From: an uncultured Gemmatimonadales bacterium
Lineage (GTDB): Bacteria > Gemmatimonadota > Gemmatimonadetes > Longimicrobiales > RSA9
NCBI GenBank assembly: GCA_963708135.1
Contig: OY970192.1
Location: 3,104,001-3,168,000 of the forward strand
Direction: 5' to 3'
Length of the DNA stretch: 64,000 nt
The position numbers and the translations under genes are program-made. The notes beneath the pieces were generated by a model. That model was not told the origin of the DNA, made no database searches, and saw only the letters and a list, made by a program, of their open reading frames with translations. Positions 27,612 through 38,063 of this stretch are shown here, piece after piece (the first letter of the stretch is position 1; every line of letters begins with the position of its first letter).

Positions 27612-30600
27612 TCAATACATGATTCTCAGGCGCCTCGCCATCCCCCGGCCGAGGCGGCCGGGGCGCGGGATGTAGCGGTGCAGCTCCTCGGGGGTCTCGA
27701 CCCAGACGCACAGGTCGGGGAGGAGGGCGAAGTCGCCGATGCCGATGGCGGCGCCGAAGTGCGAGATCAGCAGCACGGCCTCGCCGTCGAGGAGGGCGGA
27801 GCGGTAGTCCTCGTTGTGGGAGCCCTGGAGCAGGTAGTAGATGACGCGATCGGGCTTGTCGCGCGTGACCTGGGTCTGGAAGAGTCCGCCGCCGGCGGCG
27901 CGCGAGTCGGCGGCCTGCTCGAGCGGGAAGAAGCCGAGGTACTGGAGCCGGTTCTCGATGATCCGGGCACGGCCGCGGAAGTAGGCGGCGAGCAGGTGGC
28001 CCCAGGCGGGGTCGGCGAAGAGGTTGTCCCACCCCTCGGCGGACGCGAAGAACTGGGCCTTCATGTGGAGCTTCGGATGCTCGCCGGGGTCGGCCGGCCG
28101 GGGCGGCTCGAAGCCGCGGGCGCGGAGCCGCTCGGCGACGGCGTGCAGCGAGTCCACCACCGCGGTCGAGAACGGCTCGAGGGCGAGCAGCCAGGGCGTC
28201 CGCGCGCGGCGGGCGAGCGCGGTGTCGATGCGGGCGGGCAGGTCCACGACGGGGATGGCGGTGTCGTAGATCCCGACGCGGAGCAGCCCGCCAGCGCCGT
28301 GGATGGCGGGGGCGAGGGTCCGGCGGGCGAAGAGCAGATGCGAGAGCGTGGCCTCGGCGAGCGCCATGGCGCCGCCGTAGGGGGCGGGGGCGTTGCGGAC
28401 GGAGGGGGCCATGACGAGCACGCGGCCGCCGTCGAGGGCGCGGCCCACGAGGAGCGAGGCCCAGAGTGGATTGCTCCACAGCGAATCCGGGATGCGGAGC
28501 ACGGAGCCGGGCGGCAGCAGCGAGTAGAGCATGGCCTTGGCGATGGTGGCGGCCTTGAAGCCGTAGCCGACGCGGTTGTGGAGCTGGACCACGGTGGCCG
28601 GCGTCAGGTCGAAGCGGGGTACGGGCGCGGGGTCCGCAACGGCGGCGGCGTCGCCGGGGGGCCGCAGGAACGAGGGGAGCTGGTCCGGCTTCACGCCCTG
28701 GCGGAGCAGCAGACGCGAGGCGGCCTCCTTCACGGGCAGCGCCGCGGGGCCCTGGAGCAGCACGGCGCGGTCCTCCCACTCGGGCCCGGCGTAGTCCTCG
28801 CCGACGCCCATGCCGCTCATGATGAGCATGCCGCGGTAGGGGTCGCCTTCCGTGAGGTCGTAGAAGGCGAGCTTGCGGTGGTCGCGGAGCGCGTTGTCGG
28901 GGAGGCCCACCAGCGGCAGGATGTCGGGGCTCCAGAAGGAGGGATCCTGCTGGTCGGTCACGTGGACGTGCACGGCCACGCGGTCGTGCAGCCAGTCGGC
29001 GCCGTGGCCGCGCGCCTCCGTCTGCAGCCGCCGTGAGGCCGCCACCGCCCGCCTGAGCTCGCCCTGCAGGCTGTCGATCACGGCCGCCCACGCGCGCGGC
29101 GCCCCACGCAGGCGCGAGCCGCGCGAGAGCGGATCCGTGAGCACCGGCATCCAGAGCCGGCTGCGGTGCGCCTCGAAGTAGTACTGGTCGAGGAAGATGT
29201 GGAACTGCGGCAGCACGCCGGTCGCGTCGTAGGCGCGCACGCGCCGGATGAGCGCGTCCAGGTAGCCGTACGCCACCATGCGGAAGGCCACGGAGTCGGC
29301 CACGCCGTGCTGGTCCACGCCGTGGAAGTCGTGGATCCAGAGCACGTGGTACGTCCGCGCCTCGTGGATCGAGCGGTCGAGCTCCCACTGGAACTGCGAG
29401 TTGCGCGCGTACGCCACGTGGTTGCTGTCGGAGAAGGCGGCGCCCGTGGCGCGCTCGATCAGCCGGTCAACCTGCTCCTGCGTGCAATGGTCCTCCTCGC
29501 GCAGCGCGAGCTGGAGCGGCAGCCAGACGAGCCGCCAGTCGCCCCAGCGCCGCTGCTGCTCGGCCGCCACCTCGCCGACCGCGTCGAGCAGGCGCGCCAG
29601 CAGCCAGCCGGTGCGGGCCAGGTCGTCCGTCCCGGCGACGAGGCCGCCGCCGGATGCCGGCCCGCTCTCGCCGGCTTCCGCGCGCACCACCCGCCGGCCC
29701 GCGAACGGCTCGAGCAGCGCGGCGGCGAACGGCGCCAGCGACACCGGCTCGCGCTTCTGCCCGAGCAGGCGGTCGTACGGCAGCAGCACCCGAGCGAGGA
29801 GGAGCAGCCGCATGGAGTCGGCACGCGCGCGGCCGCGCGGCGTCACGCCGGCGGCGCGGGGATCCAGCGCCACGGAGAACGCGCGGTCGAACGCGTGGTG
29901 ATAGGCGGCCAGCACGGCGCCCGCGCCGCCCGAAGCGGCCACGAGCCGGCCAAGCGCCGCGAGGCTGTCCACCACCTCCGCCGGCGGGGTGCCGCCTCCC
30001 GCCCGCCTCAGGTATGGAACCACGACCGCCCCGACGCGCAGCGCCCAGGCACGCAGGTCCGCGGCGGCCGCCCGGAGCGGGTCGGCGGCGGGCGGCGCGG
30101 GTGGGACGGGCGGCGTCGCCTCGGCGAGGTGCACGCGGTCGCCCTTCGGGCGGTCCTCACCCCTGAGCCGCTGGCCGACCGGCAGCACGAAGCCGATCCG
30201 CAGCCGCTCCGCCCCCGCCGGTGTCCAGGTGGCGTGCAGCATGGTGCCCGGCAGGAGGAATCCGCCGCGCACGAGCGGGTGCATGAGGGAGAAGTACGGC
30301 GAGGCCTGGCCATCGGGGAGGTCCACCTCGATTCCCATGCCGAGGCGCAGGATCGGGCTCCGGACGCCGGCCATAAGGGCGCCCCGCGGCCCGGCACGGT
30401 TCGTCTCCGTGCCGATCGCCCCCTCGAGCTGCAGGCCGAGCAGCCCGGTGGCCGGGTTCAGCAGGCCGCGGTAGATGCCCGCGCCGACGAGCCCGCCCAC
30501 GCCCGTCCCGCCCCCGCCGCCGACGTACGCACCGACGAACGGCCGCAGCACCGGCGGCAGGCTGAGGAGGTCGGCGTACGCTTCAGGCGGCGGCGGCTGC

Positions 30601-30803
30601 CGCCGTGCCGCGGCCGCTCGGGCCCGGTCGGCGTGAGCGGTGGCGGCGGGATCGGGCGTAGGCCGCGCGACGGCCTGGGCATCGAGGCTCCCGGGCGCCG
30701 CGAGCAGGCAGGCGCACACGACCGCGATCGCAGCCGTCCCCGCCCGGCGGCGGATCCCGCGCCACGCCTCCTCCCTCTCCGCCATCCACGCCTGCCTCGA
30801 CAT
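27612..30803 (-). CDS. Large secreted phospholipase D superfamily-like protein (~1063 aa)
   Basis: Signal-like N-terminus, a Gly/aromatic beta-strand-rich region, HKD motif DHRKLAFYD and a second degenerate motif KLHMKAQFFA followed later by QGSHNEDYRS. Confidence 0.65.
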   Translation of the reverse strand: MSRQAWMAEREEAWRGIRRRAGTAAIAVVCACLLAAPGSLDAQAVARPTPDPAATAHADRARAAAARRQPPPPEAYADLLSLPPVLRPFVGAYVGGGGGTGVGGLVGAGIYRGLLNPATGLLGLQLEGAIGTETNRAGPRGALMAGVRSPILRLGMGIEVDLPDGQASPYFSLMHPLVRGGFLLPGTMLHATWTPAGAERLRIGFVLPVGQRLRGEDRPKGDRVHLAEATPPVPPAPPAADPLRAAAADLRAWALRVGAVVVPYLRRAGGGTPPAEVVDSLAALGRLVAASGGAGAVLAAYHHAFDRAFSVALDPRAAGVTPRGRARADSMRLLLLARVLLPYDRLLGQKREPVSLAPFAAALLEPFAGRRVVRAEAGESGPASGGGLVAGTDDLARTGWLLARLLDAVGEVAAEQQRRWGDWRLVWLPLQLALREEDHCTQEQVDRLIERATGAAFSDSNHVAYARNSQFQWELDRSIHEARTYHVLWIHDFHGVDQHGVADSVAFRMVAYGYLDALIRRVRAYDATGVLPQFHIFLDQYYFEAHRSRLWMPVLTDPLSRGSRLRGAPRAWAAVIDSLQGELRRAVAASRRLQTEARGHGADWLHDRVAVHVHVTDQQDPSFWSPDILPLVGLPDNALRDHRKLAFYDLTEGDPYRGMLIMSGMGVGEDYAGPEWEDRAVLLQGPAALPVKEAASRLLLRQGVKPDQLPSFLRPPGDAAAVADPAPVPRFDLTPATVVQLHNRVGYGFKAATIAKAMLYSLLPPGSVLRIPDSLWSNPLWASLLVGRALDGGRVLVMAPSVRNAPAPYGGAMALAEATLSHLLFARRTLAPAIHGAGGLLRVGIYDTAIPVVDLPARIDTALARRARTPWLLALEPFSTAVVDSLHAVAERLRARGFEPPRPADPGEHPKLHMKAQFFASAEGWDNLFADPAWGHLLAAYFRGRARIIENRLQYLGFFPLEQAADSRAAGGGLFQTQVTRDKPDRVIYYLLQGSHNEDYRSALLDGEAVLLISHFGAAIGIGDFALLPDLCVWVETPEELHRYIPRPGRLGRGMARRLRIMY

Positions 30804-30889
30804 GCCGCCCTCTCCGGCCGAGCACCCGGGTGCCCGTCCATGGGGGCACCCGCAGGGCCGTGTGCAAGCCGGAGACCACACTCCACTGA

Positions 30890-33466
30890 CTATACTCCGT
30901 CCGTCATCGGCCGCTGTGCCGGCTCGCAGGCGATGGCGGTCTTCGCGCCGGCGAGCCCGGGCGCGCCCGCCTCGAGAGTCAGCGTTCCGGGCTCGCGGCC
31001 GGCCTGCAGGATCGCGCAGCACAGGCCGCCGAAGGCGCTGCGCTTCATCGCCCTGTCCGCCTCGTGGCTGCTGGGATCGCCGTTGCCGACGCCGAGGAGC
31101 TTCCCCGCGCCGGTGACGCGGAAGGCGACCTCGTCGCCTGCCACGGGGACGAGGCGGCCGCGCGCATCCTCGACGCGCACCTCCACGACGGCCACGTCCT
31201 GCCCGTCCGCGGCGATGCGGGCGCGGTCCGGGCGGAGCGCGAGCCGGGCCGGCGCCCCGGTGGTCTCGCGGCGCGCGATCAGCGCCGGCTTGCGCGAGCC
31301 GGTGCGGTATCCGCGCGCGGTAAGCGTGCCCGGCGCGTACGGCACGGTCCACTGCACGTGGCCGTATCTCGGCACGTCGCGCGCGCCGAGGGAGCGGCCG
31401 TTCAGCAGGAGCTCGACACGATCGAGGTTCGTGTAGCACCAGACGTCGATCGGCTGGCCTTCCCTGCCCTGCCAGCTCCAGTGGGGAAAGAGGTGGAGCA
31501 CGGGGGCGCCGCCCCACATGGCCTGGTAGTAGAAGAAGGCGTCCTTGGGGAAGCCGCAGGTGTCCATGACGCCGAAGTGCGAGCTCACGCACGGCCAGTC
31601 GTAGGGCGTGGGCTCGCCGCGGTAGTCGAGGCCGGTCCAGACGAAGCCGCCGGCCAGGTACTCGCGCGCGGCGTAGTGGGCCCACCAGTCCTCGGCGGTG
31701 CTGCCCCACCACGGGTGGTTCACGTCGTAGGCGGAGAGGTAGCCGCGCTCCTTGTCGGTCGTGTAGATGCCGCGCGTCGAGAGGGCGCTCGCGACCTCGG
31801 TTCCCATGCACGGCTTCGCGGGGAACCGCTGGTGGAACGCGTCGGTCTTGGCGTCGCGGTAGTTGAAGCCCTGCACGTCGATGACGGTCGAGATGCCGGT
31901 GCCGAAGCCGCTGTCCATGGCGGCGGCCACGGGCCGGCCGGGGTCCAGGCGCAGCACCGCCCGCTTCAGCGTGGCGGCGATGCGGGCGCCGCGCTCGTTC
32001 CACTGATCGGCCTGCTCCTCGTTGGCGATGGACCAGCAGAAGACGCTCGGGTGGTTGCGGTCCCGCCGCACCATGCGCTCGAGCTGCGAGAGCCCCTCCG
32101 CTCCGGGCTCGAACATGCGCGTCTCGTCGACGACCAGCATGCCCAGCCGGTCGCACGCGTCGAGCAGCTCCCTGGCCGGGGGGTTGTGCGCCGCGCGGTA
32201 GGCGTTCGAGCCCATCGCCTTCAGGCGCTCGATCCGGTACGCCTGCAGCCGGTCGGGCACCGCCGCGCCGACGCCCGCGTGGTCCTGGTGGTTGCACGTG
32301 CCGCGCAACTCGAGGCGCCGGCCGTTCAGGAAGAAGCCGCGCTCGGCGTCGAAGCGGATCGTGCGCATGCCGAAGGTGGTCTCGACGCGGTCGAGCACGC
32401 CGTCCACGCCCTCCACGGTGGTGACCAGGCGGTAGAGCGCCGGCGAGTCGGGCGACCAGAGGGCCGGCCGCGCCACCAGGGCCTCCTGCGTCAGGGTGAG
32501 GCCGGTGCACGCGGGCAGGCTCGCGGGCTCGGCGGCCGTCGTGGCGACCGTGTTCCCCGCCGCGTCCAGCACGGTGTGGGTGACGCGGCAGTCGGCGGTC
32601 TCGCCGGCGTCGTTGGCGAGCTCGGTCGCGATCGTGAGGCGGGCGTCGTCGCCTTCCACCGCCGAGTGGACGAAGACGCCGTCCGGCGCGACGTGCACCG
32701 GGCCCGTCTCGACCAGCCACACGTGCCGGTAGATGCCGGCGCCCTCGTAGAACCAGCCCTCGTGCTCGGTGGCGTCCACGCGCACGACGAGGATGTTGGG
32801 CGCGGCCGGGTCGAAGACGTCGGTGAGGTCCACGCGGAAGGGCGCGTAGCCGCTCATGTTGCCCGCGAGGAAGTGTCCGTTGAATGCGACGATGGCATTG
32901 CGGAACACCCCGTCGAACTCGAGCGCCAGGCGCCGTCCGCGGGCCAGGGCCTCGGGCAGCCGGATCTCGCGCCGGTACCAGCCGATGCTGGTGTCGGGCC
33001 AGCGGCGGCCGAGGGGCCTGAAGCCGGAGTCGCGGAGCTCGGGGTCGTTCACGAACGGCAGCTCGACCGCCCAGTCGTGGGGCAGGTCGAGCTCACGCCA
33101 CGCGGCCGCGTCGAAGTCGGGCTTCGAGGGCTCGAAGAGCGTGCCCGCCTTGGCGAATGCGCTCTTCCGGCCGTAGCCGAAGTCGCGGGCGGGGTCATCG
33201 GCGTGGCCCAGCGCGAAGCGCCAGCCGAAGTCGAGGAGCAGGCGTCGGCGGGGGGAGCCGGGCGCGGAGGAGGAGGCGGGCTCGAGACGCGAACGGGACC
33301 TCGGATCGCCGGGCGCCGTACCGAGGAGGCCCGGGGGCAGGGCACACGCGGCGGCGGCGCCGAGGGTGGTCCTGAGGAGCTCGCGGCGGGTCCAGCGCTC
33401 GGCGGGCGCGTGCCCAGCGAGGCATTCCTCTGCCTCGGGGCCGCCTTGCGGCTCGTCGCGGCTCAT
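30890..33466 (-). CDS. galA: GH2 beta-galactosidase (GalA type) with a twin-arginine signal
   Basis: TRRELL Tat motif, LPHDWAVELPF, EGWFYEGAGIYRHVWL, HQDHAGVG, RDRNHPSVFCWSIANEE (acid/base) and GGFVWTGLDYRGEPTP. Start uncertain (33466/33487/33526). Confidence 0.9.
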   Translation of the reverse strand: MSRDEPQGGPEAEECLAGHAPAERWTRRELLRTTLGAAAACALPPGLLGTAPGDPRSRSRLEPASSSAPGSPRRRLLLDFGWRFALGHADDPARDFGYGRKSAFAKAGTLFEPSKPDFDAAAWRELDLPHDWAVELPFVNDPELRDSGFRPLGRRWPDTSIGWYRREIRLPEALARGRRLALEFDGVFRNAIVAFNGHFLAGNMSGYAPFRVDLTDVFDPAAPNILVVRVDATEHEGWFYEGAGIYRHVWLVETGPVHVAPDGVFVHSAVEGDDARLTIATELANDAGETADCRVTHTVLDAAGNTVATTAAEPASLPACTGLTLTQEALVARPALWSPDSPALYRLVTTVEGVDGVLDRVETTFGMRTIRFDAERGFFLNGRRLELRGTCNHQDHAGVGAAVPDRLQAYRIERLKAMGSNAYRAAHNPPARELLDACDRLGMLVVDETRMFEPGAEGLSQLERMVRRDRNHPSVFCWSIANEEQADQWNERGARIAATLKRAVLRLDPGRPVAAAMDSGFGTGISTVIDVQGFNYRDAKTDAFHQRFPAKPCMGTEVASALSTRGIYTTDKERGYLSAYDVNHPWWGSTAEDWWAHYAAREYLAGGFVWTGLDYRGEPTPYDWPCVSSHFGVMDTCGFPKDAFFYYQAMWGGAPVLHLFPHWSWQGREGQPIDVWCYTNLDRVELLLNGRSLGARDVPRYGHVQWTVPYAPGTLTARGYRTGSRKPALIARRETTGAPARLALRPDRARIAADGQDVAVVEVRVEDARGRLVPVAGDEVAFRVTGAGKLLGVGNGDPSSHEADRAMKRSAFGGLCCAILQAGREPGTLTLEAGAPGLAGAKTAIACEPAQRPMTDGV

Positions 33467-33537
33467 CCGCCTACTCCTCCGGCTCATCGAGACATTCCTC
33501 TGGCTCGGGGGCGGCCTCAACTTCATAACGAACCGTC

Positions 33538-33568
33538 ACGGAGGAAACGGAGGAACGGAGGAACGGAG
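33538..33568 (+). repeat. Left (ACGGAGGAA)n tract flanking GxxExxY
   Basis: ACGGAGGAAACGGAGGAACGGAGGAACGGAG runs up to the GTG start and also supplies the RBS. Confidence 0.85.
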
Positions 33569-33954
33569 TGGAGCGTCGCGAGGTGGATCCTCTTACGGGG
33601 AAGATCATCGGCGCGGCCATCACGGTGCATCGGCACCTCGGGCCCGGGCTGCTGGAGTCCACGTACGGCGCGTGCCTGGCGGCCGAGCTGAGACACCTGG
33701 GGCTCGGCGTCGAGCGGCAGGCCGTCGTGGCGATCGATTATCGCGATCTCCGCCTCGAGCGCGCCTACCGCATCGACATCCTGGTCGAGCACACGGTCGT
33801 GGTGGAGCTCAAGGTCGCGGCTGCGCTGGCCCCGATCCATGTCCGCCAACTCCTCACCTATCTTCGTCTCGCCGACCTCCACGTCGGCCTCCTCTTCAAC
33901 TTCGATGTCGAAGCCCTCGCCGCCGGCGGCATCCGCCGCGTCTTCCGGCCCTGA
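33568..33954 (+). CDS. GxxExxY protein (PD-(D/E)XK nuclease superfamily)
   Basis: IIGAAITVHRHLGPGLLESTY, YRIDILVEHTVVVELK and QLLTYLRL...GLLFNF. Confidence 0.93.
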   Translation: MERREVDPLTGKIIGAAITVHRHLGPGLLESTYGACLAAELRHLGLGVERQAVVAIDYRDLRLERAYRIDILVEHTVVVELKVAAALAPIHVRQLLTYLRLADLHVGLLFNFDVEALAAGGIRRVFRP

Positions 33955-33956
33955 TG

Positions 33957-33982
33957 CCTCCGTTTCCTCCGTTTCCTCCGTT
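33957..33982 (-). repeat. Right inverted (TTCCTCCGT)n tract flanking GxxExxY
   Basis: CCTCCGTTTCCTCCGTTTCCTCCGTT starts just after the stop codon and is the reverse complement of the left tract. Confidence 0.85.
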
Positions 33983-34088
33983 CGCTCGTGTCCGGCCGTT
34001 GGACGTCTGCCGAGCCACGGGGCCTCCGCAGCGCGGCGCGGCGCGGTCTCGGCACCGCGAGGTCGCTGCGCCCGGGAACTCTCCGCTC

Positions 34089-34148
34089 GCCCGTGCCCGT
34101 GCCCGTTCCCCGTGCCCGTGCCCGTGCCCGTTCCCCTTGCCCGTGCCC
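34089..34148. repeat. Degenerate (GTGCCC)n hexamer microsatellite
   Basis: gcccgtgcccgtgcccgttccccgtgcccgtgcccgtgcccgttccccttgcccgtgccc upstream of galM. Confidence 0.8.
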
Positions 34149-34172
34149 CCGCCGTCCGCTCTCATTCCGGAC

Positions 34173-35231
34173 ATGCCCGATCCCTTCGGCACCCTCGACG
34201 ACGGCACGGTCGTCCACGCGCACACGCTCCGCAACCCGGCGGGGATCGTCGTCCGCGTCCTGGACTACGGCGGCATCATCCAGTCGCTCGAGGTGCCGGA
34301 CCGCGACGGCCGCGCGGTGGATGTCGTGCTCGGCTTCGACTCGCTGGAGCCGTACACGAGCGTGTCGCCGTACTTCGGCGCGCTGATCGGCCGCTACGCC
34401 AACCGCATCGGCGGCGGCCGCTTCGCGCTCGATGGGCGGACCTTCACGCTGGCCCGCAACGACCCGCCGAACCACCTGCACGGCGGCGAGCGGGGCTTCG
34501 ACCGGCGCCTGTGGAGCGCGGAGCCGTTCGAGGCGCGGGGCCGGCGCGGCCTGGTCCTCCGCTACGTCAGCCCGGACGGCGAGGAGGGCTACCCCGGGAC
34601 GCTGCGAGCCACCGCGAGCTACACGCTGAGCGACGATGGCCGCCTCGTCTTCGACTTCCAGGCCACGACGGACCGCGCAACGCCGGTGAACCTCACGCAG
34701 CACAGCTACTTCAACCTGGCCGGCGCGGGCGCGGGCAGCGTGCTGGGCCACGTCGCGCGGATCTCGGCGGAGTCGTTCACGCCGGTGGACGCGACGCTCA
34801 TCCCGACGGGCGAGCTGCGGAGCGTCGCGGGCACCCCGTTCGACTTCCGCGCGCCCACGCCGCTCGGCCAGCGGATCGACGGGGACGACGCCCAGCTCCG
34901 CCACGGCCACGGCTACGACCACAACCTCGTGCTCGAGCCTGCGGGCGAGGAGGGCGGCCTCCGCTTCGCGGCGCGGCTCGACGAGCCGGCGAGCGGGCGC
35001 ACGCTCGAGATCCTCACGGACCAGCCCGGGCTCCAGCTCTACACGGGCAACTACCTCGACGGCACGCTCAAGGGGAAGGGCGGCGTCGCCTACGGCCGCC
35101 ACGCCGGCGTGGCGCTCGAGACGCAGCACTTCCCCGACTCGCCGAACCGGCCGGAGTTCCCCGCCTCGATCCTGCGGCCCGGCCAGCTCTACCACACGCG
35201 CACGGCCTGGCGCTTCTCCGTGAGCGGCTGA
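34173..35231 (+). CDS. galM: Aldose 1-epimerase (galactose mutarotase)
   Basis: YFGALIGRYANRI, NHLHGG, GEEGYPG, VNLTQHSYFNL, GYDHN and ALETQHFPDSPN. Confidence 0.93.
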   Translation: MPDPFGTLDDGTVVHAHTLRNPAGIVVRVLDYGGIIQSLEVPDRDGRAVDVVLGFDSLEPYTSVSPYFGALIGRYANRIGGGRFALDGRTFTLARNDPPNHLHGGERGFDRRLWSAEPFEARGRRGLVLRYVSPDGEEGYPGTLRATASYTLSDDGRLVFDFQATTDRATPVNLTQHSYFNLAGAGAGSVLGHVARISAESFTPVDATLIPTGELRSVAGTPFDFRAPTPLGQRIDGDDAQLRHGHGYDHNLVLEPAGEEGGLRFAARLDEPASGRTLEILTDQPGLQLYTGNYLDGTLKGKGGVAYGRHAGVALETQHFPDSPNRPEFPASILRPGQLYHTRTAWRFSVSG

Positions 35232-35339
35232 GCGGGAAGGACGCCGGCCCGGCGGTTCCACGCCGGGCGCGGCGGTTTCGATGCTGCCGGGAAGACGCAA
35301 GCTCCAACGGCCGTTCTCCGTTCTCCGTTGCCTCGGCCC

Positions 35340-36746
<1,407 letters not shown>

Positions 36747-37127
36747 GTCGGCCTCCCGATGGTTGATGGAGGCGTCGATCATGCGCGAACCGCGCGAGGG
36801 GCGCAAGAAGGGCCGGGGCGGCGCTGTCGAGGCCGGCCGGGTTGCGGCCAGGCGGGGCTCGAGGGTGCCCGGCCGCGAGAGTGGGAGATCCCGGGCCGGC
36901 GATGTCGAGGCGGCCGGGTTGCGGCCAGGCAGGCTCGACCGTGCCGGACGCATGAGTGGGGGACCCTGGGCCGGCTTGGCGGGCGCTCGGCTCGCGAGGC
37001 CTCGCGCCCCGCCGGGCGGACTGCCGGTCCGAACGGCCGGGCGCGGGCACGGGCGAAGGGGGCCGGCCGCCGCCCCCACTCCGGGCCGCCGGGGGGAGGG
37101 AGGAAGGGGGCGGAGGGGCAGTCCGAC

Positions 37128-37574
37128 TCAGCCGGCCGCCACCCTGCCGCGCAGCAGGTCGCGGATCTCGGCGAGCAACTTCTCCTCGGCGCTGGGCGCG
37201 GGCGGGGCGGGCGGCGCGGGCGCGGCCTCTTCCCTCCTCTTCAGCCGGTTGAAGCTGCGGACTACCATGAAGACCACGAACGCGACGATGCCGAACGAGA
37301 TGAGCGCGTTCAGAAAGACGCCCAGGTTCACGGTCACGGCGCCGGCGGCTTTGGCGGCAGCAAGCGTCGCGTAGGGGCCGGGGTGGGTGCCGGATTTCAG
37401 CACCATGAAGATGTTCGAGAAGTCCACGCCGCCGAGCGCGAGTCCGATGGGCGGCATGATGATGTCATCGACCAGCGACTTCACGACCGTGGCGAACGCG
37501 GCGCCGATGATGATGCCGACCGCCATGTCGAGCATGTTGCCCTTGACCGCGAACTCCTTGAATTCCTTGAACAT
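37128..37574 (-). CDS. mscL: Large-conductance mechanosensitive channel
   Basis: [27 protein letters not shown]...[12 protein letters not shown] and the C-terminal LLAEIRDLL. Confidence 0.96.
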
Positions 37575-38063
37575 GAAACCCTCCGGGGTGAGCGGGACGC
37601 GGCCAGGCGGAGCGGGCTCGACGCGCGTGCGCCGGACGGCCGGCTCAATCAATGGCGCCCCGGCCCCGGCAGCGCAACGGTGTTCGCGGCCGAGGCGGAT
37701 GGCCCGGTCGACGCCGAGGGCATCGGCTGGAGGCTGCTCCGTCTCAGGGCCGAGCGTTTCGGAGAGCGCGCACGCCGCCGCACGTCGCCCGCCGGAAGCG
37801 GCCTCGCCATCGTTGCGCCGCGGGGCGCACCCCACCTACCTTGACCCGCCGCGCCGGCCCGGACGGAAAATCACGGGACCGCGTGGACGGCTCCCACTCC
37901 CCCACATCGACGCAAGACTGCTCGCATGAATGTGCGATGCCGCCGCGGCGGGGTCCATCGCAATGTCGGGCATTCCGGCGGCGTTCCGCCGGCGCGCGAC
38001 GCAGTCCTCCACGCCCGCGGCCCCTCCGGCCGCGGACGCGGGTTCCCCTCGCCAGGAGGCGGC

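Follow-up and report, generated by a model that had tools for sequence, protein, structure and literature searches.

A gene for a GxxExxY protein in the genome of an uncultured Gemmatimonadales bacterium is bracketed by two inverted arrays of short tandem repeats, one ending at its start codon and the other beginning just behind its stop codon. The window, the whole stretch of 64,000 nucleotides that was analysed, corresponds to G000:C1:3104001-3168000 of this 5.45-Mb genome (72% G+C), and the complete unit, here called the cassette, measures 445 bp. The same architecture is found at GxxExxY genes of many phyla, the arms share a conserved sequence skeleton, the two arms of an element co-vary, copies without an open reading frame (ORF) exist, and high array counts are restricted to genomes that carry the gene. 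The reading we favour, which is quite possible though short of probable, is that the cassette is one copy of a widespread selfish family of the foldback type, resembling the intervening sequences (IVS) of rRNA, whose arms would be the cis-acting sites of the nuclease it encodes and would zip together in RNA. Cassettes of this kind apparently have not been described; they are akin to IVS-like palindromic elements and to those resembling miniature inverted-repeat transposable elements (MITEs).

The left array, ACGGAGGAAACGGAGGAACGGAGGAACGGAG, occupies positions 33538-33568, and its final G doubles as the first base of the GTG start codon (33568-33570). Tandem Repeats Finder described it as 3.8 copies of ACGGAGGA over 31 nt (period 8, 95% matches). 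The right array, CCTCCGTTTCCTCCGTTTCCTCCGTT, begins 2 nt ('tg') past the TGA stop codon (33952-33954) and is the reverse complement of left-arm units; its period is 9, with 100% matches (Table 1). An earlier note on this DNA had claimed that the arrays bracket the ORF exactly at start and stop and that their ends can pair with the ORF looped out, and direct reading of the sequence bears out the first point. As to the second, a repeat search found an inverted repeat of 18 nt with 100% complementarity (33538-33555 against 33964-33981), and in the predicted minimum free energy (MFE) fold of 33520-34000 the two arrays are paired and the ORF lies in the loop (z = -3.8). The RNA duplex formed arm to arm has a calculated energy of -53.3 kcal/mol, against a mean of -33.1 +/- 4.4 when the right arm was shuffled, and none of 500 shuffles was as low. 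No Rfam match was obtained at E <= 1 within 32500-35500.

Three GGAGG motifs lie in the left arm. Because the last full one (33557-33561) is situated 6 nt ahead of the GTG, the ribosome-binding site is likely to lie inside the left array. The proposal that pairing of the arms sequesters this site is plausible for the window cassette, where a likely Shine-Dalgarno (SD) sequence is part of the arm, but burial of the SD is not general across the family: many members have an arm that stops 20-50 nt short of the start codon, and SD-like arms are not a feature of the four-helix-bundle cassettes described below.

Inverted arrays proved to be common at GxxExxY genes elsewhere. Each locus was scored by its best local alignment between some 120 nt of upstream flank and the reverse-complemented downstream flank of some 220 nt, and the controls had the same geometry but were placed elsewhere in the same loci (312 for the order-level set and 628 for the cross-phylum set). 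The window locus reached a Smith-Waterman score of 44, against a 99th percentile of 32.9 in the pooled order-level controls. The GxxExxY family is present in 35 of 60 relatives from the same bacterial order, with 1-11 matches per carrying genome. Thirty-two loci were fetched, 31 of them with a tblastn match; two were dropped for want of an in-frame start and two for short flanks, leaving 27 loci that include the two copies of this genome. Twenty of the 27 exceeded the 95th percentile of the controls and 18 the 99th (16 of 25 when the relatives are counted alone). The second set came from a scan of one genome per prokaryote species. Its search was built from 6 sequences, as an alignment of 22 sequences held no stretch conserved enough to search with, and it gave 594 confirmed relatives. 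The best 80 loci were kept, which belong to Chloroflexota, Cyanobacteria, Bacteroidota, Planctomycetota, Verrucomicrobiota, Acidobacteriota, Proteobacteria, Spirochaetota and other phyla. Usable flanks were available for 78, and 60 of these were above the 95th and 56 above the 99th percentile. These counts take in three unpublished genomes (G015, G016 and G019). Enrichment of inverted arrays at GxxExxY genes, the test that the earlier note had proposed, is thus strongly positive in both sets. Only 8 plasmid records carry the family.

It might be supposed that chance or replication slippage had produced two unrelated microsatellites that happen to be complementary, the more so as this genome is rich in short tandem arrays (7397 after merging). 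The probability of this is negligible: no shuffle matched the energy of the duplex, and 56 of the 78 cross-phylum loci show this architecture again at homologues of the gene. The flank-score enrichment in both locus sets and the shuffle test together refute it.

The arms have a sequence of their own in addition to being complementary. The arm unit is a purine-rich heptamer followed by a spacer of 2-3 nt, and three to four tandem copies make up an arm of about 30 nt. The skeleton of the heptamer throughout the family is C-R-C-R-R-A-G, of which CACGGAG and AACGGAG are the versions in the window. A typical upstream arm across phyla reads (T/A)ACC-RCRRAG-NN-CRCRRAG-NN-CRCRRAG, as exemplified by AACCACAGAGACACAGAG, CACCGCAAAGACGCAAAG and CACCACGGAGACACGGAG, and the downstream arm is its complement, ending in CTYYGYGGT(G/T)AA. 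At least two CRCRRAG units upstream plus at least two CTYYGYG units downstream were present at 46 of the 78 loci. Consensus units fitted the skeleton perfectly in 26 of 52 loci, compared with 4.3% of shuffled units; they were extracted by simple periodicity, a crude procedure because the spacers vary, and 52 of 56 arms were usable. Positions 1, 3, 6 and 7 of the heptamer are nearly fixed, and positions 2, 4 and 5 switch almost exclusively between A and G. Within one element, each arm agrees with the complement of its partner in 89% of the columns (1656 of 1857, over 56 loci), and the spacers vary freely among elements yet agree between the two arms of the same element. Since the skeleton is conserved and the arms co-vary, free spacers included, the aligned sequences indicate a double constraint, which ties the arms both to one another and to a motif. 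In the sub-clade of the window only the outermost unit keeps the full skeleton, as it does in the closest relatives (L017, L031 and L026), and a divergent GxxExxY subgroup (L025 and L027) has different units. The earlier description of the element as a minimal selfish cassette accordingly needs qualification as regards 'minimal', since it belongs to a family whose arm sequence is conserved beyond complementarity.

The protein encoded in the loop matched TIGR04256 (GxxExxY; E = 1.5e-38, 131.8 bits against a cut-off of 35) and PF13366 (PDDEXK_3; E = 2.3e-37, 128.4 bits against a cut-off of 22). Among 22 aligned proteins from the same bacterial order G27, E30, Y33, E80 and K82 are invariant and D70 is conserved in at least 90%. 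The window protein carries G27, E30 and Y33 of the GxxExxY motif, D70, E80 and K82 of the nuclease motif D...ExK, as well as Q94 and Y98, which are likewise invariant in the family. Its AlphaFold2 model (predicted local distance difference test score 92.8) was most similar to 3ijm (Z 8.3, root mean square deviation 3.2, 98 aligned residues), Cas4 SSO0001 (Z 8.0) and BpuSI (Z 8.0), followed by the archaeal Holliday-junction resolvase Hjc (Z 6.6). According to the model the protein has a restriction-endonuclease-like fold; as the Z values are middling, the comparison fixes the fold class alone. Foldseek with the model returned nothing at E <= 0.001 (best E = 3e-3), and a sequence search of the PDB with the family profile had no match at E <= 10. 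In the part of a systematic survey that deals with PDDEXK_3, the function of the family is given as unknown and multiple transfers are noted (PMC3424549).

The open frames of GxxExxY genes often continue through the arms (L004-L032 and L073-L152). Such read-through adds spurious tails (...SAxxLR/LCG-type endings) as well as N-terminal extensions, and several loci have an ATG that coincides in part with the outer box (ATGAACC...). Annotation artefacts in the family are likely to arise where gene callers read into the arms.

The genome contains a second full GxxExxY gene and no further one. It is bracketed by an inverted repeat of different sequence, TTCCA-CGCGGAG-A-CGCGGGG-G-AGCGGAG and its complement, but of the same build and with the same skeleton. 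This second gene (G000:C1:1204615-1208053, L002) is located inside a super-array with units of about 110-125 bp, each composed of a fragment of the GxxExxY 3' end and right-arm sequence, so that the 29-nt arm is present at least 20 times; directly 3' of the gene there is a (GGGTCAGCC)n array. A third copy in decay may be represented by a fragment of 27 residues (G000:C1:3909858-3909938, L003), which aligns with the central part of the GxxExxY profile at E = 2.7e-4 but scores below the cut-off. The arm type of the window, with AACGGAGG units, was also found without an ORF at three sites (C1:3250777-3250957, 3267581-3267799 and 4988637-4988822), where the inner segments measure about 125-190 nt, and as solo arrays at two further sites of the genome.

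Elements without an ORF are widespread in the relatives too. When the 60 relatives were screened for CRCRRAG-N2-3-CRCRRAG-N2-3-CRCRRAG, each genome gave 0-57 matches, compared with 0-1 for the reversed pattern used as a control. At least 10 matches were found in 14 of the 60 genomes, and all 14 carry a GxxExxY gene. At least one match occurred in 27 of 35 genomes with the gene versus 8 of 25 without it, where the maximum was 7. Eighteen ORF-less sites from four relatives form hairpins whose stems of 35-40 bp are almost perfectly paired and enclose loops of 15-250 nt. Many of these hairpins lie just past stop codons, and they have recurring outer boxes, AACTGCnGG or AAAGAAGG, which may be part of the element or a preferred target. 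The hairpins of one relative, G044 (L276-L286), have arms that are near-identical among copies and often a different outer box at either end. In the window, the outer left flank TCAACTTCATAACGAACCGTC weakly resembles the AACTGC-type outer box that stands beside other copies of the arm family. On the right-hand side, CACGAGCG, the reverse complement of CGCTCGTG, is similar to the outermost left unit CACGGAG.

A second protein family in this genome is packaged alike. There are ten full matches to TIGR02436, a four-helix-bundle family known from the intervening sequences of 23S rRNA, and the genes are flanked by inverted arrays with their own unit at each locus, such as AGAGTGGG/CCCACTCT, CGAAAG-type units, G-rich versus C-rich units, GGTTTT/AAACC and 14-15-mers. 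Eight of the ten loci lay above the 99th percentile of 300 random controls from the genome, and so did 21 of 28 usable loci in the relatives (213 controls), with hypervariable units of 6-9 nt. The repeat unit differs at almost every four-helix-bundle locus (L247-L275 and those of this genome). Genome-wide, 123 nearest inverted pairs of short arrays remained after the removal of GC-only units, and 86 of them are less than 300 nt apart, representing ORF-less hairpins mostly of the AGAGTGGG family. Hairpins of the AGAGTGGG/CCCACTCT type are very abundant (for example C1:539821-541444, 3233151-3235455 and 4709242-4710796) and occur both as dozens of single copies of 190-320 bp and in tandem super-arrays that repeat every 225-250 bp or so; arms of this type also enclose one four-helix-bundle gene (C1:3235046-3235348), which is next to a super-array. 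When 109 frames from 12 longer array-flanked regions, covering part of the genome, were compared with Pfam, only bordering host genes and no further cargo family were recognised, so the only ORF families seen in loops are GxxExxY, in the window cassette, and that of the four-helix-bundle genes. These 12 regions held no clear transposase; a frame of L159 with a strong HHH_3 match gave one sub-threshold match to Transposase_20 (25.0 bits).

These observations bear on an explanation in which the hairpins are MITE-like or resemble repetitive extragenic palindromic (REP) sequences, are moved or made by machinery encoded elsewhere, and have captured small genes within or between them. Two unrelated protein families in the same packaging would then be no surprise, nor would the fact that ORF-less hairpins are far commoner than ORF-bearing ones, as the 86 closely spaced pairs illustrate. 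G044 has 42 arrays for a single gene, and at 8 of the 78 loci, for example L078, the arrays are 'everted', the gene lying between two complete ORF-less hairpins. What such a scheme leaves aside is that the arm skeleton follows the GxxExxY family across phyla while the four-helix-bundle arms differ, that 10 or more arrays were found only in genomes with the gene, and that the 12 regions scanned held no further cargo. On balance we regard it as unlikely.

If the stem were selected in the sense RNA only, mismatches between the arms should favour changes that remain G.U-compatible on the sense strand. The cross-phylum GxxExxY loci had 42 such mismatches in the sense and 63 in the antisense strand (56 loci), the GxxExxY loci of the relatives 13 and 13 (16 loci), and the four-helix-bundle loci 19 and 17 (21 loci), so that over the three sets the count is 74 versus 93, with no sense-strand bias. 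This would fit pairing or copying at the level of DNA, folding in the transcripts of both strands, or young arms.

The element might alternatively act purely at the RNA level in the manner of an IVS. RNase III would cut the stem and excise the loop with the ORF, burial of the SD would gate translation, and the nuclease would be unrelated cargo. The size and layout of the cassette match those given for the 23S IVS of Coxiella in the pertinent part of PMC4990558, and the IVS-protein family of this genome has the same packaging. The predicted MFE fold with its paired arms, the SD in the left arm and the co-variation of the arms point in the same direction. Against this stand the missing excess of sense-strand G.U changes, an SD that is often outside the arms, and the finding that none of 109 GxxExxY loci adjoins rRNA (in comparison with the rRNA operon of this genome); complementarity alone, moreover, leaves unexplained both the tandem build and a heptamer skeleton that is shared by low-GC genomes and genomes of 72% GC. 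We consider this explanation rather unlikely.

Three to four evenly spaced units per arm, abutting start and stop codons, could also be understood as operator arrays. An oligomeric product of the cassette would bind the units and control its own transcription or translation, and the element would be immobile. A parallel exists in TRAP, which binds spaced triplet repeats. Conserved GxxExxY proteins go with conserved units, divergent four-helix-bundle proteins with hypervariable ones, and the divergent GxxExxY subgroup mentioned above with different units, all of which would be expected of operators. An operator would not explain, however, why a second, inverted array is needed downstream of the gene or why dispersed ORF-less hairpins have the same arms, and the patchy distribution of 0-11 copies per genome in the relatives fits a selfish element better. 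Autoregulation of this kind appears improbable to us.

We return to the favoured reading of a selfish family whose nuclease recognises the arms. By analogy, the encoded nuclease would act on the heptamer arms at the DNA level and so maintain or spread both the cassette and the ORF-less hairpins, a relation to its arms that is probably like that of REP-associated tyrosine transposases (RAYTs) to REP doublets forming hairpins (REPINs). It would probably be a multimer with one subunit per heptamer unit, as the three or four units per arm suggest. Upon transcription from either strand the arms would zip into a duplex of about 26 bp, with the ORF looped out and the SD buried. As in the intervening sequences of 23S rRNA, the duplex might offer a site for RNase III in the transcripts. 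Zipping of the RNA would make an insertion in the control region shared by galA and galM tolerable.

Several findings weigh against this reading. Neither an empty site nor a target-site duplication nor a presence/absence polymorphism turned up, which leaves mobility putative, and we know of no biochemical datum for any GxxExxY protein. Significant arms are missing at 9 of 27 loci in the order-level set and at 22 of 78 in the cross-phylum set. Within the closest family, arrays occur in 19 of 25 genomes with the gene and 7 of 11 without it, which is no clear difference. The genomes compared are kin and not independent, and one whole family is devoid of both arrays and gene. The abundant hairpins of G044 consist of CACGGAG units, the arms of its single GxxExxY gene of CGCAGAG units; gene arms and hairpin arms therefore match at the level of the skeleton but not always of the subtype. 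The four-helix-bundle genes belong to an unrelated family, which is packaged alike although its arm units do not resemble CRCRRAG, so the architecture does not need a GxxExxY nuclease, and both kinds of ORF are possible passengers. Finally, the wobble counts give the RNA half of the reading no direct support.

The cassette is situated in the divergent gap between two galactose genes, as the earlier note had stated, with galA on one side and galM on the other (Table 1). It lies about 11-70 nt from the galA start, in a control region common to both genes, and transcripts of galA or galM may therefore have to cross it. The coordinates of GalA are those of the longest ORF; the true start is probably further in, ahead of a twin-arginine signal. 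A promoter scan of 33300-34300 detected no sigma-70-like site.

Table 1. Features of the cassette and its surroundings, with positions in the window
Feature	Position	Strand	Basis or remark
GalA, GH2 beta-galactosidase	30890..33526	-	NF041462, 1104 bits; coordinates of longest ORF
Outer left flank TCAACTTCATAACGAACCGTC	33516..33536	+	weak complementarity to 33991-34003; putative
Left arm	33537..33568	+	outermost CACGGAG (33537-33543), then three (A)ACGGAG(GA) units; ends on G of GTG
GxxExxY / PDDEXK_3 gene, 128 aa, GTG start, TGA stop	33568..33954	+	ORF list, profile matches, AlphaFold2 model
Right arm CCTCCGTTT, 2.9 copies	33957..33982	+	sequence, repeat searches
CGCTCGTG, probably decayed outermost right-arm unit	33983..33990	+	putative; pairs in duplex
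Galactose mutarotase galM	34173..35231	+	Aldose_epim, 8e-88

No GxxExxY gene was found within 1.5-3 kb of galM at 27 loci from the 60 relatives or at 80 metagenome loci. As the best galM identity was 66% in both collections, a comparison with an empty site at the nucleotide level is out of reach. A divergent GH2-galM pair with a short gap was present in only two relatives (L052 and L056). Three sequencing runs are listed for the region, all of them DNA runs from soil metagenomes of one study, and one contains the stretch. The ORF has a G+C content at third codon positions of 0.86, against 0.96-0.98 in galA and galM; on this compositional ground a foreign origin is compatible with the data. Inspection by eye revealed no direct repeat bordering either the window cassette or the ORF-less copies. 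We infer that the window copy is an insertion that arrived specifically in this lineage.

Two further repeats lie near the cassette. A solo tandem array of GCCCGT (about 9.7 copies with a super-period of 25 nt) is located between the cassette and galM at 34089-34148 and has no inverted partner in 30000-38000. Units of the GCCCGT type flank four-helix-bundle genes elsewhere, both in this genome (C1:2721546-2723718) and in a relative (L266). The array may be the leftover arm of another cassette, in which case the intergenic gap would have been a repeated landing place. The other, located in the 5' part of galA, is a direct repeat of 32 nt (33412-33443 and 33482-33513; identity 84%, distance 70 nt), which adjoins the left side of the cassette and overlaps the N-terminus of the longest-ORF version of GalA upstream of the twin-arginine signal.

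A wider generalisation, which we hold to be doubtful but worth stating, is that GxxExxY nucleases and CRCRRAG arms constitute a second REPIN/RAYT-like system, built on a PD-(D/E)XK enzyme and distributed over many bacterial phyla, and that together with the four-helix-bundle cassettes they form a general class of bacterial foldback elements of which the ORF-bearing intervening sequences of rRNA are a special case. Members of this class would have a small ORF in the loop and arms of tandem 6-10-mers, with a unit of its own for each protein lineage. GxxExxY and the four-helix-bundle 'IVS protein' are among the commonest small bacterial families of unknown function, often with many copies per genome, and if the generalisation is true it would give the first functional handle on both of these very abundant families. 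The shared packaging itself links the intervening sequences of rRNA with intergenic elements that are far more numerous, and it suggests a partnership of the REPIN/RAYT kind based on a different enzyme fold. It also supplies a concrete candidate substrate for the nuclease, namely three spaced CRCRRAG units as a duplex, a hairpin or a cruciform.

A literature search yielded no description of repeat-armed GxxExxY or four-helix-bundle cassettes, although the comments of NCBIfam curators on TIGR04256 and TIGR02436 may mention flanking repeats. Among known systems, integron cassettes consist of a small ORF that lacks a promoter and, next to it, an imperfect palindrome (attC) of 60-140 bp. The 'everted' loci are superficially similar to them, but the canonical form of the present family has its ORF inside the palindrome and not beside it; its arm ends do not appear to resemble the attC core, and no integrase search was made. 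The Foldback transposons of eukaryotes have long terminal inverted repeats built of short tandem repeats, and most of their copies are noncoding while a few carry a gene. They belong to another domain of life, the cassette is far smaller and the proteins are unrelated, so the comparison is one of analogy only.

Closer parallels exist among bacterial elements. Correia elements, or NEMIS (Neisseria miniature insertion sequences), are MITEs of bacteria; in RNA their terminal repeats fold up and become targets of RNase III cleavage. The cassette family shares with them a short intergenic element with terminal inverted repeats, many just past stop codons, with ORF-less copies of 80-320 bp; it differs in that no target-site duplication was seen by eye, no related insertion sequence with a recognised transposase was found in the regions compared with Pfam, and the terminal repeats are composed of tandem units. 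REPIN/RAYT systems combine REP doublets with an HUH tyrosine transposase resembling that of IS200/IS605. Here, too, a gene of nuclease type stands between inverted copies of a short sequence from which scattered hairpins without an ORF are likewise formed, and high numbers of doublets, dozens in some relatives, occur only where the gene is present. The GxxExxY protein has, however, a PD-(D/E)XK and not an HUH/Y1 fold, Pfam and NCBIfam giving PDDEXK_3 and GxxExxY only. Its arms are made of 3-4 heptamers instead of a single REP palindrome, the gene has multiple copies and a patchy distribution (0-11 per genome), and in G044 the gene arms and the abundant hairpin arms are of different subtypes.

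The likeness to the intervening sequences of rRNA, to which the earlier note had drawn attention, is apt, given that the IVS-protein family is packaged in the same way in this genome and its relatives. For Coxiella, the part of PMC4990558 that treats the 23S IVS describes 428 nt with a terminal stem of 28 bp, an S23p ORF inside the loop, and cleavage by RNase III at mid-stem. The IVS of Coxiella and Leptospira and the cassette accordingly share, as far as that account goes, a size of about 430-450 nt, a stem of about 26-28 bp and an ORF of about 120-130 aa in the loop. The complementary termini with a long stem are present in the cassette as a predicted fold. In the same part of that source the 23S IVS is regarded as selfish and horizontally moved, traits that the favoured reading would ascribe to the cassette as well. 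Unlike the 23S IVS, the window cassette resides between the protein-coding genes galA and galM and not in rRNA, its cargo is a PD-(D/E)XK nuclease instead of a four-helix bundle, and its arms are tandem heptamers that are conserved across phyla.

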